DNA from: Escherichia phage vB_EcoM_FB
Reading direction: 5' to 3' (one strand)
DNA length: 64,000 nucleotides
Sequence record: MT682711.1
Shown: one piece after another, positions 48,818 through 55,819 of the stretch
How the letters are laid out: every line of letters starts with the position of its first letter
Numbering within the stretch: position 1 is the first letter of the stretch
The notes under the pieces: generated by a model
Told to the model about the DNA's origin: nothing
The model's database searches: none
The model's input: only the letters and a program-made list of their open reading frames with translations
Position numbers and translations under genes: made by a program

Positions 48818-49939
48818 ATGGAAAGATTTATGGCAGAATTTGGACAAGGATATGTCCAGGTTCCTACATTATCTGAAAACAATGCTGTAAGGTATAAACT
48901 TAGTATAGCGGGTAGTTGTACTAAGTCTACCACAAAAGCATATGTTAAATTTCAAGATGGGAACTTCGGTTCCCAGAATTTTAAAAATGGATTAAACCTT
49001 ATAGAAATCGATGTTAGTGCTGAACCCAAAATAGTGGCTAACAAAACTTATAGTTTTACAAAAGATTTTGATGTTATTTCTGAAGCTTTTATAACGTATA
49101 TAAATTCTATACCGGCTAATAGAATAGTTTGTTTAGTATCTTCTGGTAGATTAAATGCTTCACAAAAACTTATCGATTGGTTCCGTGCAGCAGGAAGTAC
49201 CGCATTTCCATCTAAATGGCTAATAGACCGCTTCGAGCCGTCTTATTCGGCATTTTATGTTTCAGGAAGGAATGCTATAGTAATGGAACATGTGCTTTAT
49301 AATGATGGGGTATTGGTCGAAGATGTTTCTACCCCATTAGAAGTGGTATTTGATGATATCAGCGACGTTGGTGGTACAGGATATCCTGTCAGAATTGTTG
49401 AAGACGAAAGCACTTATCTAAGCAATGATGGAGATGAAATTAAGCGATTTCCTACCGAATCTCCTACAACCCCATTAACAGATTATAATATGAAACCAGG
49501 TGAATTCTTTTACCTTAAGTTTCAATTAATGCGCGACCAAGCTTTAAAAGACGTAGGGACTTCTCAGATGTCTGTTAGATTTTTTAATGCCTCAGGTGCT
49601 TTAACTGGGACAGTTAATATGGACGTTCCTTCCAACGTTCCTGCTGGTGCATGGATGACATTTGAACGGGTAGTAATGGTTCCTGAAGGTACTACAGACT
49701 TCACCCTTTATGCCAGAAAAACCGCTTCGGCTGGCCAAGGTGGAGTTCGAAATGTTATGTTCGGTGAGATATCTGAATCAGAACCTCAGCCAAAACCTGC
49801 TGAATTTGGTGTTAACGGTATTCGTATGAACTTTGGTACGGAAACTAAAAATATGGGTACTACCATAGCCCAGCTATATGATAAAACAGGCACTAAACCT
49901 GGTCAGGTTTGGGTCGCTGAATTTAGAGAAAAATATTAA
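48818..49939 (+). CDS. 35: long tail fiber hinge protein gp35
   Basis: 373 aa; AAGAGG SD; synteny. Confidence 0.85.
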   Translation: MERFMAEFGQGYVQVPTLSENNAVRYKLSIAGSCTKSTTKAYVKFQDGNFGSQNFKNGLNLIEIDVSAEPKIVANKTYSFTKDFDVISEAFITYINSIPANRIVCLVSSGRLNASQKLIDWFRAAGSTAFPSKWLIDRFEPSYSAFYVSGRNAIVMEHVLYNDGVLVEDVSTPLEVVFDDISDVGGTGYPVRIVEDESTYLSNDGDEIKRFPTESPTTPLTDYNMKPGEFFYLKFQLMRDQALKDVGTSQMSVRFFNASGALTGTVNMDVPSNVPAGAWMTFERVVMVPEGTTDFTLYARKTASAGQGGVRNVMFGEISESEPQPKPAEFGVNGIRMNFGTETKNMGTTIAQLYDKTGTKPGQVWVAEFREKY

Positions 49940-49960
49940 GGAACCTTCGGGTTCCTTTTT
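49940..49960 (+). terminator. intrinsic terminator after gene 35
   Basis: GGAACC-ttcg-GGTTCC followed by TTTTT. Confidence 0.7.
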
Positions 49961-50670: not shown

Positions 50671-53600
50671 ATGGCTACTTTAAAGCAAATCCAATTTAAA
50701 AGAAGTAAAGTAGCCGGTGTACGTCCGGCACCGGCCCAGTTGGCTGAAGGCGAACTGGCTATTAACTTAAAGGACCGTTTACTTTTTACTAAAGACGATA
50801 CTGGAGCTATTATCGACCTCGGTTTTGCTAAAGGCGGTAATATCGACGGTAATGTTATCCATAAAGGAAATTACACCCAAACCGGCGATTATACCCTAAA
50901 TGGTACCTTTACCCAAACAGGTGATTTTAATTTAACCGGTGTTGCTCGTGTAACTCGTGACATTATTGCCGCTGGCCAGATAATGACCGAAGGCGGCGAG
51001 CTTATTTCTAAGAGTGCATCGACGTCCCATTTGAGATTTTTTGACGGCGCATCCCGCGAACGTGGCATTATCTTTTCGCCAAATAATGCTGGAGCGACCA
51101 CTCAGGTAGTTAATATTCGCGTACAAGATTATGCGACAAGTGGCGAAAGCACTTATGCGTTTTCAGGCAATGGTGTGTTTTCTTCCCCTGAAGTTTTTGG
51201 ATGGAAATCTGTATCAACTCCGGTAATTTATACCAATAAAGTTATTACCAACGGTAAAGTTGCAGGCGATTATGATATCTATTCATTAGCAAATAACACC
51301 CCGTTGGCAGAAAGCGAAACGGCTATTAACCATCTCCGTGTTATGCGAAATGCAGTTGGTTCGAGCATTTTCCATGAAGTTAAAGATAATGACGGAATAA
51401 CCTGGTATTCCGGCGATGGCTTAGAAGCTTATCTTTGGTCGTTTACCTGGTCCGGCGGATTGAAAGCAGGTCATTCCATGTCTGTTGGTCTTCCACACGG
51501 CCCTAAAGGATATTCTGAATTAGGAACGGCTTCAATTGCTCTTGGTGATAATGATACCGGCTTACAATGGCACCAAGATGGTTATTTCTTTAGTGTAAAC
51601 AACGGCACAAGAACTTTCCTGAGCGGCCCTGCAGAAACTACTAGTCTTAGAAAAATGGTTATGGGTTATTCTGTAAACGGCACTGATTTAACTACGCCTC
51701 CGTCAGAAAACTATGCTTTGGCTACTGTTGTCACTTATCATGATAATAACGCATATGGCGATGGCCAAACTCTTTTAGGTTATTATCAAGGTGGAAATTA
51801 TCATCACTATTTCCGTGGTAAAGGTACTACAAACGTTAACACCGCCGGAGGTTTGTTAGTCACTCCCGGTAATATAGATGTGGTCGGTGGTTCAGTTAAT
51901 ATTGATGGCCGCAACAACGCTTCGACTCTTATGTTCAGAGGAAATACAACAGGAACTAGTTCAGTTGATAATATGACTATCAGCGTTTGGGGTAATACCT
52001 TTACTAATGTTGATGGCGACCGTAAAAACGTAATGGAAATATCTGATGCTACTAGCTGGATGCAATATATTCAACGAACAACTGCTGGTAAAGTCGAATC
52101 GGTTCTAAATGGCACCCAGATTGTTAATGAAAACTTGACTGTAGTAAAAAATGCTACATTTGACGGTACAATCAGCGCAGCCGGTGAAATCGCGACAAAT
52201 GCTGTAAATGGTCTTCGTATTTGGAACAATGATTACGGTGCCATTTTTAGACGTTCAGAAGGAAGTCTTCATATTATTCCAACTGCTTACGGTGAAGGTA
52301 AAAATGGTGATATCGGACCACTTCGTCCATTTAGTTTGGCTTTAGATACCGGTAAGGTTGTTATTCCTGACCTAGATTTGAGTTATGCTTCTTTTGCAGC
52401 AAACGGCTATATTAAATTCGGTGGACATGGTGCAGGTGCAGGCGGTTACGATATTCAATATGCACAAGCAGCTCCTGTTTTCCAAGAAATTGATGATGAC
52501 GCGGTAAGTAAATATTATCCTATTGTTAAGCAGAAATTCTTACAAGGAAAAGCTGTTTGGTCTTTAGGTACTGAAATTAATTCCGGGACTTTTGTTTTGC
52601 ATCATTACAAAGAAGACGGGACCCAAGGTCATACATCAAGATTTAATGCTGATGGTACAGTTAATTTCCCGGATAACGTGCAGGTTGGCGGTGGTGAAGC
52701 TACTATTAGCAAAAATGGTAACATCTGGTCTGATATCTGGAAAACGTTTACTTCTGCCGGTGATGTAACCAATCTTCTTGGTGCTGTCTATAGCCGTGTT
52801 TCTAAAGAAGGCGACACAATGACAGGCCGCTTAACTCTTAATGCAAACTCGGATGCTATTGTTATTAACAGTGCTGCAACCGAATCTGGTTATGTTAAAG
52901 GGCAAAAAGCAGGCGTTAATAACTGGTATGTGGGCAATGGCGGCGCTGATAACGCCCTATCGTTTTATAGTTTCCAAACTAATTCAGGTGTTAATATTCA
53001 TAATACGGGAGAAGTTGCTTTAGCTCCTCAGGGGTCGGATACTTTTTATTTTAATAGGGACCGACTTTATATAAAGGGTTCACAATGGGCTGCGCACCAG
53101 GCTGGCGATTGGGGAACTCAATGGAAGCAAGAAGCTCCGGTATTTGTAGATTTTGGTAATGTTGGTAATGATAGTTATTATCCGATTATCAAAGGAAAAT
53201 CTGGTATTACTAATGAAGGATATGTATCGGGTGTTGATTTCGGTATGCGTCGTATTACTAATACATGGGCCCAAGCTATTATCCGTGTTGGTAACCAGGA
53301 AAATGGCAACGATCCTGTAGGTATTTTCGAATTCCACTCTAGTGGTTTATTTTACGCCCCGTCTTTAGTCCAGACTCCTGCAATTGGTGTTGGTACTGTT
53401 AATGGATTAGGCTCTCCTAGTATTGCTATTGGTGATAACGACACAGGATTATCGCATGGTGGTGACGGCCGAATCAATATGGTTGCCAATGGTATGCATA
53501 TTGCTTCATGGTCTAGTTCTTACCATATCCATGAAGGTCTTTGGGATACCACTGGTGCTTTGTGGACTGAAACAGGAAGAGCTATTATTTCTTTTGGTCA

Positions 53601-53991
53601 TTTAATCCAACAAAGCGATGCCTATTCAACATTTGTCCGTGACGTTTATGTTCGTTCTGATATTCGTGTTAAAAAAGACCTTGTTAAATTTGAAAATGCT
53701 TCTGAGAAGCTTTCTAAAATTAACGGCTACACTTATATGCAGAAACGTGGCCTGGATGAAGAAGGTAATCAGAAATGGGAACCTAACGCTGGTTTAATTG
53801 CTCAAGAAGTTCAAGCTATTTTACCTGAATTGGTTGAAGGCGACCCTGACGGTGAAGCTTTACTTCGTTTAAACTATAACGGTGTAATTGGTTTAAATAC
53901 AGCTGCAATCAATGAGCACACTGCAGAAATAGCAGAATTGAAATCAGAGATTGAAGAACTTAAAGCACTAATTAAATCATTGTTAAAATAA
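50671..53991 (+). CDS. 37: long tail fiber distal subunit gp37 with C-terminal intramolecular-chaperone-like domain
   Basis: 1106 aa; last ~110 aa (SDIRVKKDL...NGYTYM...[15 protein letters not shown]...coiled coil) resemble self-cleaving chaperone domains of tail spikes. Confidence 0.9.
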
Positions 53992-54022
53992 TAAGAGGGG
54001 CTTAGGCCCCTTGGAGGTTTAT

Positions 54023-54820
54023 ATGGCAGTTGGAGGACCGTGGGTAGGATCGTCTGCAGTAGCTAATACAGGACAAAATTGGATGGGCGGCGCCGCTCAA
54101 CGATTGAGAATGGGTATTCCGTTTTGGATGAGTAATATGAACGGTCGGTCTGTTGAAGTAATTCACACCATAACAGCAAACCATAATTTTAATGGCCAGT
54201 GGTTCCGCGACCGCTGTTTTGAAGCAGGCAGCGCACCTATTGTGTTTAATATCACAGGCGATATAGTATCTTACGACCGTAATGTTCCATTGTTCTTTAT
54301 GAATGCCGACACACCTAATGAATATGTCAATTTGACTATTCATGGAGGCGTGCATATGTGGGGTCGAGGTGGCCACGGTGGGTGGACCCATTCAGGTGGC
54401 GACGGTAACGGTCAATGGGGCGGTGATTGTATAGTCAACCATATAGGTCATAGACTACGTATTTGGAACTATGGGGTTATCTGTGGCGGTGGCGGTGGCG
54501 GTGGTGGCATTGCGTATCGTCCTCACTCAGGTGCTAACTGGCAAGATATCGGTGGTGGTGGTGGACGTCCATTTGGTCCTGGTGGCGGTGGTGGATACTC
54601 CGGTGGTGGTGCTTCTTATGAAAGCCCTGGTGGTGGATACGATTATGGTAACGCCCACTCAGGTCGTGGCGGTGATGCTGGCGGCGCTGGCGGCAACGCA
54701 TGGAATGATGGTGGTAAAGTTCTTAAAGTTGGGGCTGGGGGCGGTTCTGGGGCTGCTGTTGCCGTTTCTGCTCCTGCATGGGGCGCGACAGGTACGATTT
54801 ACGGTCCTTGGCTTAGTTAA
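54023..54820 (+). CDS. 38: T2-type gp38 receptor-recognising adhesin (glycine-rich motifs)
   Basis: start re-set to ATG 54023 with GGAGG SD; several poly-Gly tracts (GGGGGGGG, GGGGG) separating variable segments. Confidence 0.8.
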
Positions 54821-54825
54821 GAATT

Positions 54826-54833
54826 TATAAATA
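54826..54833 (+). promoter_or_regulatory. late promoter TATAAATA for holin t
   Basis: exact TATAAATA 19 nt before ATG 54852. Confidence 0.6.
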
Positions 54834-54851: not shown

Positions 54852-55505
54852 ATGGAACCAAAAGTAGGAATATCATTATCAGACCTACTTTTTGGACTTC
54901 TTGATAGAATTTTTAAAGATACTTCTTCCGGGAAAGTAGTTTTTTCCCGGGTCCTAGTCGTGATATTATTGTTCTTTATGGCATTGGTTTGGTATAAAGG
55001 CGAGTATATTCTAAACTTTTATAAAGAGACAACTTATGCCTCTTATACTGAAATGATTAGACAAGACCAGGACAATAGATTTAAAATTGCGGCTATCGAG
55101 CAGCTCCGAATAGTGCATTCTTCTTCAGGCGCAGACTTCACAGCAATATATTCTTTTAGACCAACCAACATGAATTATTTTGTGGATATGGTTGCTTACG
55201 AGGGTAAATTACCGGAAACGGTAGACGCAAAAAATACGGGAGGGTTTCCAATTGACAAAACGTCAGTAGAATATATGGCGGGAGTTAACGGGAACTATTT
55301 TGAATCAAGTACCGAAACTGTATTCCTTCCTACAAAGAAGAAAACACAATTCACGTATATGTTTTCATGCCCGTTTTTTAATTTGGATAACGTCTACTCC
55401 GGCTCGATATCGTTGTACTGGTATGATATCAAACCGGATTTAGGATTTCCTAGACTTTCGTCTATGTGCGGTCAAGCCGGAAGGACATTAGGTCGAACAC
55501 GTTAG
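54852..55505 (+). CDS. t: holin T
   Basis: 217 aa; single N-terminal TM (VVILLFFMALVWY) and large periplasmic domain; LSDLLFGLLDRIFKD as in T4 T. Confidence 0.9.
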   Translation: MEPKVGISLSDLLFGLLDRIFKDTSSGKVVFSRVLVVILLFFMALVWYKGEYILNFYKETTYASYTEMIRQDQDNRFKIAAIEQLRIVHSSSGADFTAIYSFRPTNMNYFVDMVAYEGKLPETVDAKNTGGFPIDKTSVEYMAGVNGNYFESSTETVFLPTKKKTQFTYMFSCPFFNLDNVYSGSISLYWYDIKPDLGFPRLSSMCGQAGRTLGRTR

Positions 55506-55777
55506 AAATTGGAGGTATACATCATTAAATAACGGTGTATATCTTCATATCCTTCATTAAATTGCTCAATAAGAGTGTCACGTTCATCTTCAGTTAAAGA
55601 CTTAAATAATTTGTTATAAGACAAACCATTAAGTTCCTTTCCATGTTCATTACGAATACCCAACTCATTCAAAAAGGCAATAAACTCATCACGACGTTGC
55701 ATGATGTCTTCACAATCCGTTTTAATCAAAATGGAAACAATAGTAGCAATTTCGGAAACAATTTCAATTTTAGTCAT
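55502..55777 (-). CDS. asiA: AsiA anti-sigma70 factor
   Basis: start re-set to ATG 55777 (91 aa); IVSILIK...FIAFLNE...LIEQFNEGYEDIHRYLMMY as in T4 AsiA. Confidence 0.85.
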   Translation of the reverse strand: MTKIEIVSEIATIVSILIKTDCEDIMQRRDEFIAFLNELGIRNEHGKELNGLSYNKLFKSLTEDERDTLIEQFNEGYEDIHRYLMMYTSNF

Positions 55778-55819
55778 AATATTCTTCTTCAATTCAGTAC
55801 GTCATTATCTGATAGGGCT

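Follow-up and report, generated by a model that had tools for sequence, protein, structure and literature searches.

How is the long tail fibre tip of Escherichia phage vB_EcoM_FB (FB) put together, and which of its proteins decides what the phage can infect? These questions are raised by genes 37 and 38 of the stretch analysed here (sequence record MT682711.1; the window, 64,000 nucleotides). The closest records to the window are those of WG01, KIT01 and QL01, which mark its source as a Dhakavirus-like T-even coliphage, and the gene order 34-35-36-37-38-t-asiA is the same in all four. In all three relatives the counterpart of gene 37 bears the annotation of long tail fibre distal subunit and, judged by gene order and domains, gene 38 lies directly after this chaperone-ended gene and before the holin gene t. 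We conclude with high confidence that gp37 and gp38 form the distal tip of a Dhakavirus-type long tail fibre built in the way of T2 and S16, with the cleavage and capping mechanism proposed below. This assignment is founded on domain content, motif conservation, homology to solved or experimentally tested proteins, and gene order. No evidence contradicts it.

Architecture of the gp37-gp38 tip

The C-terminal end of gp37 is a segment of 111 residues that opens with SDIRVKKDL at residue 996 (nt 53656). Pfam places Peptidase_S74 (PF13884, 'chaperone of endosialidase') over residues 996-1055 (E=1.1e-12; 48.5 bits, cutoff 22), and 37 PHROG families of tail fibres have C-terminal ends that match the domain. 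When the last 125 residues of gp37 were aligned across ten phages, T2 and T6 among them, the motif VY.R-S-D.R.K was invariant in 10/10 proteins. The serine at the start of the domain and the lysine five residues downstream are present as Ser996 (nt 53656-53658) and Lys1001 (nt 53671-53673), which we take to be the catalytic pair, as designated in the endosialidase work of Schulz in 2010 and Schwarzer in 2007. A profile made from the ten-protein alignment and searched against solved chains retrieved S16 gp37 (2.5e-32), the MYRF autoproteolytic domain 7DC3 (1.5e-9), the phage tail fibre 8JOV (7.7e-7) and the GA-1 neck appendage chaperone 3GUD (2.7e-3). The Ser996 motif aligns to the MYRF domain, and the chain of 3GUD, a released chaperone, opens at the aligned serine (SDERHK). 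Similarity to S16 gp37 (6F45_A) covers the last 196 residues of the FB protein (residues 911-1106, E=1.2e-46).

In S16 the last 113 residues of gp37 are autocleaved after trimerisation at DLNVS^SDRRIKK, which uncovers the docking surface for gp38, and the aligned site in the Yersinia fPS phages reads DVYIR^SDGRLKI (PMC7917993). Since both sites align to DVYVR^SDIRVKK in FB, cleavage is predicted between R995 and S996; the residue before the site is Arg in FB and Ser in S16. By analogy with S16 (PMC6851490, PMC7917993), the stretch of about 65 residues that precedes the site is the predicted docking surface for gp38. Its DNA is 82-93% identical to that of WG01, KIT01 and QL01, and the protein is here much more conserved. 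The end of the chaperone domain is helical and heptad-like in sequence, and probably adopts a coiled-coil state. K1F endosialidase, T5 pb1, the phi29/GA-1 appendage and MYRF belong to the same Peptidase S74 family, with the same Ser/Lys site at the start of the domain and release after trimerisation. Unlike in those systems, the exposed end in FB would be capped by a separate adhesin and would not itself be the functional tip.

One alternative is that the chaperone domain is retained, either catalytically dead or simply uncleaved, and that gp38 binds elsewhere on the fibre. In the literature consulted, cleavage is reported for no Dhakavirus, and no direct evidence favours retention. We regard it as very unlikely, given that serine and lysine are kept at S-x4-K spacing and that the flanking VY.R and D.R are invariant, T2 and T6 included. 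Processing of gp37 has been shown for S16 (PMC7917993) and, by citation, for T2 and T6, that of T2 being credited to Drexler 1986, and the tryptophans with which gp38 would dock are conserved. Cleavage of gp37 followed by capping is thus the reading with which we continue.

The protein encoded next, gp38, is covered almost throughout by two Pfam families, Gp38_N (PF21721, residues 1-39, E=2e-20, 72.9 bits) and GP38 (PF05268, residues 45-264, E=1.1e-62, 212.1 bits), each against a cutoff of 25 bits. Among PHROG families it matches number 2056 ('tail fiber protein; host specificity', E=3.8e-102), and a chance resemblance can be set aside. Two solved adhesins are homologous over its full length: residues 1-264 align to residues 1-249 of S16 gp38 (6F45_D, E=2.5e-47), and the receptor-binding domain of PP01 gp38 (9V85) is matched at E=1.8e-58. 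Glycine makes up 70 residues of gp38 (26%) and 36.5% of residues 110-265, with a run of eight at 155-162 (G8, nt 54485-54508) and runs of five at 177-181 and 187-191; 57 of the 70 glycine codons are GGT or GGC. Across twelve gp38 proteins, drawn from the window, Dhakavirus, Tequatrovirus, Gaprivervirus, T2, T6 and S16, the three tryptophans Trp7, Trp20 and Trp35 and the G8 and G5 runs are invariant in 12/12, while the segments between the runs vary.

The S16 structure gives these features their probable meaning. There, the gp37 trimer has three equivalent pockets that receive three tryptophans from the tips of helices, a polyglycine-II sandwich of three layers is built from ten Gly-rich motifs and includes the helix 151-GGGGGGGG-158, and distal hypervariable loops are the proposed binding site (PMC6851490). 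The FB protein is colinear with the tryptophan prongs, the Gly-rich motifs and the hypervariable loops, and its full-length alignment to 6F45_D and 9V85 suggests that it may well adopt the same polyglycine-II sandwich. A single-sequence AlphaFold2 model of gp38 was of very low quality (mean predicted local distance difference test score, pLDDT, 32.1; predicted template modelling score, pTM, 0.19) and gave no confirmation of the fold. A literature search for virion proteomics that recorded gp38 in a close relative returned nothing directly usable. Antiserum raised to the LHE83 homologue, from the same genus and 79% identical, blocked adsorption (PMC10987938), which argues that gp38 is likely to be exposed on the virion.

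Comparison with named systems sharpens this picture. WG01 (Dhakavirus wg01) has an identical gp38 (100%), there called 'tail fiber adhesin', and the proteins of QL01 and KIT01 are 99% and 98% identical. The S16 tip (PDB 6F45; Dunne et al. 2018) has a gp37 beta-helix with an autocleaved chaperone and a monomeric gp38 made of an attachment domain with three tryptophans, a beta-helix and a polyglycine-II sandwich that includes the G8 helix, an architecture predicted for FB as well; it differs in that gp38 identity is 48%, the variable loops are unrelated and its receptor is Salmonella OmpC. PP01 gp38 (9V85), the best-scoring solved relative, has a near-identical beta-helix core and the same Gly motifs; it differs in its variable loops, and its receptor is OmpC of E. 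coli O157. T2 and T6 share the two-gene design and the cleavage motif, with identities of 44% (T2) and 61% (T6) in gp38 and of 33% and 31% in the chaperone domain.

A fibre of the T4 type, in which gp38 would serve solely as a chaperone of assembly and not enter the virion, leaving receptor binding to the C-terminus of gp37, is the reading suggested by database labels: the homologue is called 'distal long tail fiber assembly catalyst' in the records of UPEC07, JS10, JS98 and T6, a label inherited from T4 annotation. T4 does have the same genomic position, 37-38-t, and homologous N-terminal two thirds of gp37. However, its gp37 ends in a Collar and fibre-repeat tip (PF07484 and Phage_fiber, PF03335) and lacks an S74 domain, whereas Pfam finds neither family in FB gp37 and Peptidase_S74 instead. 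The two gp37 proteins align over residues 1-661 only, at 34% identity, with an unrelated C-terminal third, and FB gp38 shows no similarity to T4 gp38 (BLASTP E=7.1 for a match of seven residues). Moreover, gp38 is homologous over its full length to the two solved adhesins, and RefSeq, in its own note on gene 38 of T4, states that gp38 of the T2 subfamily is unrelated and is the adhesin. With a gp38 unlike that of T4 and a gp37 without the Collar and needle tip, we rejected this alternative, whose probability we consider negligible.

The sequence-only reading of this DNA had recognised a chaperone-like domain in the last ~110 residues of gp37, a following gene with poly-glycine motifs as in T2/T6-type gp38, and a T2-type module where T4 has another. 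All three perceptions are borne out, at the positions that were given, by the Peptidase_S74 domain, by the GP38 and Gp38_N matches with their G8, G5 and G5 runs, and by the alignments to S16, PP01, T2 and T6. The module, its mechanism and every element that had been proposed are at the same time already known. This is a textbook T2/S16-type tip, and literature from 1986 to 2018 already covers the processing of gp37, capping by gp38 and recombination at Gly motifs.

We are able to propose, from what is known of these relatives, how the FB tip would be made, including its cleavage, a 3:1 gp37:gp38 stoichiometry, gp38 as a component of the virion, the polyglycine fold and the binding of OmpA. Gp37 would be made as a precursor of 1106 residues, whose Peptidase_S74-type chaperone (S996-K1106) would nucleate trimerisation of the beta-helical fibre from the C-terminal end. 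The chaperone would then remove itself by autoproteolysis at R995/S996, dependent on Ser996 and Lys1001, and bare the blunt end of the trimer. [quoted passage not shown] The C-terminal part of gp38 would fold into a polyglycine-II sandwich formed by its Gly-rich motifs, from which the protruding variable loops would bind an outer-membrane protein.

The receptor and variable segments of gp38

Which outer-membrane protein this might be was approached through identity at non-glycine positions of residues 110-265, compared with gp38 proteins whose receptors are known. Three phages that use OmpA are the most similar: LHE83 (OmpA) at 78%, RB32 (OmpA plus lipopolysaccharide, LPS) at 74% and AV119 (OmpA) at 73%. 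Identity falls to 32% for T6 (Tsx), 31% for PE37, which is PP01-like (OmpC), and 30% for T2 (FadL/OmpF). The C-terminal half of the FB protein aligns over its full length with those of LHE83, RB32 and AV119; the Gly motifs and the four variable segments are colinear throughout, and overall gp38 identity is 77-81%. At the N-terminus, LHE83 and RB32 carry an attachment domain of the JS98/T6 type (68-71% identity), loop substitutions are scattered, and the C-terminal tail of FB gp38 is of the JS10/JS98 rather than the RB32 type. RB32 gp38 is annotated 'similar to Ox2, T6, M1'.

For LHE83, itself a Dhakavirus, OmpA was established with a resistant mutant, a knockout and complementation (PMC10987938); the receptors of RB32 (PMC3157838) and AV119 (PMC12032242) are likewise published, and receptor use is predicted by gp38 phylogeny (Lutz 2025). 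Because the loop set of FB gp38 resembles those of OmpA users, and in view of Lutz 2025, OmpA is predicted as the primary receptor. We think this probable, with confidence held back by two sets of published observations that tell against it: receptor use can shift with a handful of substitutions in the variable segments, as between PST and T6 and between SV76 and T2 (Trojet 2011), and adsorption of LHE83 still reached ~50% on BL21 lacking OmpA (PMC10987938).

The same observations keep a different primary receptor in play, either another outer-membrane protein or LPS, with OmpC or LamB as reported for the Dhakavirus Bp7, or OmpA plus LPS as for RB32, among the candidates. Small changes in the variable segments can suffice for a switch, and the FB protein differs from those of LHE83, RB32 and AV119 at 22-27% of the non-glycine positions of the binding region. 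Set against this, three OmpA users, each tested independently, have variable segments that align colinearly with all four of the FB protein and resemble them closely, identity to the Tsx, OmpC and FadL types is only 30-32%, and gp38 phylogeny carries predictive value. A receptor other than OmpA is on these grounds the less probable outcome, and OmpA is the receptor we favour.

The same type of gp38 occurs in three genera, at 95% protein identity in UPEC07 (Gaprivervirus) and 82% in SH7 (Tequatrovirus), and three Tequatrovirus phages (SH7, P8 and PE37) have a gp37 chaperone domain with 95-99% identity. This distribution, as read from sequence comparison, indicates that the tip cassette has probably spread horizontally across genera. 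The database record of SH7 tags gp37, gp38 and t with 'No experimental evidence'.

It had also been suggested from the sequence that the GGT/GGC repeat DNA at about 54480..54620 is a plausible recombination substrate for host-range variation. The repeat is present and short: it comprises (GTGGCG)x3.7 at 54483-54504 together with direct repeats of 11-26 nt that reach 54691, a length that counts against strong evidence of recombination in the FB gene itself. Recombination at Gly-motif DNA is, moreover, the published model of Tetart and Krisch (Tetart 1998, as cited in PMC3157838). A codon-level scan of the binding region against PSD9, PSD2002, JS10 and JS98 gave patchy identity (in PSD9, 97-100% over residues 151-160, 171-190 and 231-240, and 50-70% over residues 141-150 and 241-265), a pattern compatible with that model, at least at the level of sequence. 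The pattern is no strong evidence for it: 0/14 chimeras selected in the crosses of Trojet had a crossover between glycine-rich motifs GRM1 and GRM5, and we saw no Gly-motif exchange in gp38 within the clade of WG01, QL01, KIT01 and FB. The suggestion thus stands as far as the existence of the repeat goes; it is an idea already in print, and it finds no echo in this clade.

The mosaic gp37 shaft and host range

Upstream of the conserved tip the picture changes. The locus was compared with WG01, KIT01 and QL01 in 90-nt segments and, over the shaft of gp37, identity per 90 nt ranges from 41% to 100%, with parentage switching at least four to five times. Positions 52111-52200, for example, are 98% identical to KIT01 and 41% to WG01; positions 52561-52650 are 100% identical to WG01 and 56% to KIT01; and over 52831-53280 KIT01 stands at 84-94% and WG01 at 62-72%. 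A database search with the shaft found no phage above 93%, the best match being vB_EcoM-E33 (93% over 88%), and gp37 identity at the protein level is 85% to WG01, 85% to KIT01 and 61% to QL01. Onward from ~53640, where the chaperone domain lies, identity to the three relatives is 97-100% across this domain, gp38 and the holin, with one exception at 54631-54720 (KIT01, 89%); that of the holin gene t is 95-100% in the same scan.

An exchange of fragments of gene 37 between the phages WG01 and QL01 is reported to have altered or expanded host range in work ascribed to Chen in 2017 and Li in 2020. Summaries describe how gene 37 fragments of QL01, carried on a plasmid, were recombined into WG01 and how host range changed and widened (PMC10743462, PMC13517834, PMC11938639). 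The result was called counter-intuitive given gp38, and polysaccharide-binding motifs in gp37 were speculated upon (PMC10743462).

Host range in this clade is not set by gp38 alone, because gp38 is 98-100% identical among its members, the shaft is mosaic and the published swaps map to gp37. The claim that gp38 rather than the gp37 tip probably sets host range, made when the sequence alone was read, is therefore sound for receptor recognition and incomplete for host range within the clade.

A division of labour would accommodate both halves of this result. Gp38 would pick the protein receptor, as little more than a generic OmpA anchor, and the mosaic shaft would set the differences in host range between strains, as a second, lateral layer of specificity on which infection of a given wild E. 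coli strain would depend. Low-affinity lateral contacts with O-antigen or LPS, by which the fibre threads through the polysaccharide to reach the outer membrane, are one example of how such a layer could operate. The near-identity of gp38 in WG01, QL01, KIT01 and FB beside gp37 identities of 85%, 61% and 85% points this way, as do the gene 37 swaps in their secondary descriptions. Other evidence points away: experimental error is listed among the possible explanations in PMC10743462 itself, Pfam detected no carbohydrate-binding domain in the shaft, and gene 37 is often mosaic in T-even phages, which could be a neutral outcome or one that pressure from antibodies or defence systems has driven. 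We accordingly put forward the role of the shaft in setting strain-level host range only tentatively, and are similarly doubtful whether it amounts to a second specificity layer above a generic gp38 anchor.

Gene boundaries, neighbouring features and meaning of the tip

The features of the locus are collected in Table 1.

Table 1. Features of the gene 37-38-t region, numbered from the first nucleotide of the window
Feature	Position	Strand	Basis
Gene 37, long tail fibre distal subunit	50671..53991	+	Open reading frame, 1106 aa, stop included; Pfam Gp34_trimer, gp37_trimer, Peptidase_S74
Mosaic gp37 shaft, WG01-like and KIT01-like segments	50850..53460	+	90-nt identity scan
Conserved distal end of mature gp37, ~residues 931-995, ending in strand DVYVR	53461..53655	+	Aligns to S16 gp37 6F45_A
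Predicted autoproteolytic site R995/S996	53653..53658	+	Aligned to S16 and fPS sites
C-terminal intramolecular chaperone domain, Peptidase_S74 type, residues 996-1106	53656..53988	+	Pfam PF13884
Helical, heptad-like C-terminal segment of the chaperone domain	53917..53988	+	Read from sequence; aligns to terminal helices of S16 gp37 and MYRF
GC-rich stem-loop AGGGGC-UUAG-GCCCCU	53996..54011	+	RNA fold; directly 5' of the gp38 ribosome-binding site
Gene 38 Shine-Dalgarno GGAGG	54013..54017	+	5 nt before ATG; conserved in relatives
Gene 38, T2/S16-type tail-fibre adhesin	54023..54820	+	265 aa, stop included; Pfam GP38 and Gp38_N
gp38 N-terminal attachment domain, residues 1-39, with Trp7, Trp20 and Trp35	54023..54139	+	Pfam Gp38_N
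gp38 receptor-binding region, ~residues 110-264, Gly-rich motifs alternating with variable segments	54350..54814	+	Alignments; segment boundaries approximate
GGT/GGC repeat DNA coding the G8 run, residues 155-162	54483..54508	+	Tandem Repeats Finder, direct-repeat family D1; counterpart of S16 helix 3, 151-GGGGGGGG-158
Gene t (holin), downstream edge of the conserved cassette	54852..55505	+	Pfam Phage_holin_T, 3e-65

The program-made list of open reading frames opens gene 38 at a TTG at 54011. The true start is almost certainly the ATG at 54023, because of the GGAGG that precedes it and the match to the starts annotated in WG01, KIT01 and QL01. Three reading frames in other registers lie over the gene (54471..54830 on the plus strand; 54002..54391 and 54534..54701 on the minus strand); they give Val/Ala-rich or His-rich peptides of low complexity, none of which has a PHROG match, and in all likelihood they arise as a by-product of coding sequence that is GC-rich through its GGT/GGC codons (52-57% GC, against 40% for the window).

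Between genes 37 and 38, the stem-loop listed in Table 1 has no T-run after it on the plus strand. Hairpins occur at this spot in 17/17 T-even relatives examined, with stems that differ and, in many, a C(UUCG)G loop. RNAalifold, run over eight phages, returned -3.7 kcal/mol and no convincing covariation; the stems were aligned out of register, each sequence folding its own hairpin. The element could stabilise the gene 37 message or tune translation of gp38 toward the 3:1 ratio of gp37 to gp38.

Several neighbouring features were recorded alongside. The 31-nt gap after gene 38 holds a T4-type late-promoter consensus, TATAAATA, at 54826..54833 (+), 19 nt upstream of the start codon of t; this is a consensus match only, the pattern occurring 9 times in the window against 6.1 expected by chance. 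At its 3' end (55505) gene t overlaps the convergent asiA homologue (minus strand, open reading frame 55502..55792) by 4 nt (55502-55505), as it also does in the annotated records of WG01, KIT01 and QL01. The fibre hinge protein gp35 (48818-49939) matches the Pfam family ILEI (interleukin-like epithelial-mesenchymal transition inducer, FAM3-type) at 28.4 bits against a cutoff of 27; T4 gp35 scores higher, at 35.9 bits, so the match is general to gp35 and not particular to FB. Between genes 35 and 36, at 49938-49957, a perfect palindrome of 8 bp forms a hairpin around a UUCG loop (AAGGAACC-TTCG-GGTTCCTT); on the plus strand a T-rich tract comes after this hairpin, which has a terminator-like score on both strands. 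An Rfam scan at gathering thresholds and a tRNA scan of the whole window gave no matches.

Current understanding of tail-fibre biology is unchanged by this tip, and its consequences are mainly practical ones. FB has a T2-type tip, and gene 38 should be labelled as an adhesin and not, as in several records, as an 'assembly catalyst'. OmpA is a receptor prediction that can be tested. For phage engineering, a change of gp38 would be expected to switch the receptor, while the natural variation of this clade lies in the gp37 shaft, as do differences in host range according to the swaps as they are described second-hand. Beyond the coordinates of gp38 and of the gp37 C-terminus, the locus touches one question, namely whether a second layer of specificity may reside in the mosaic shaft of gp37.

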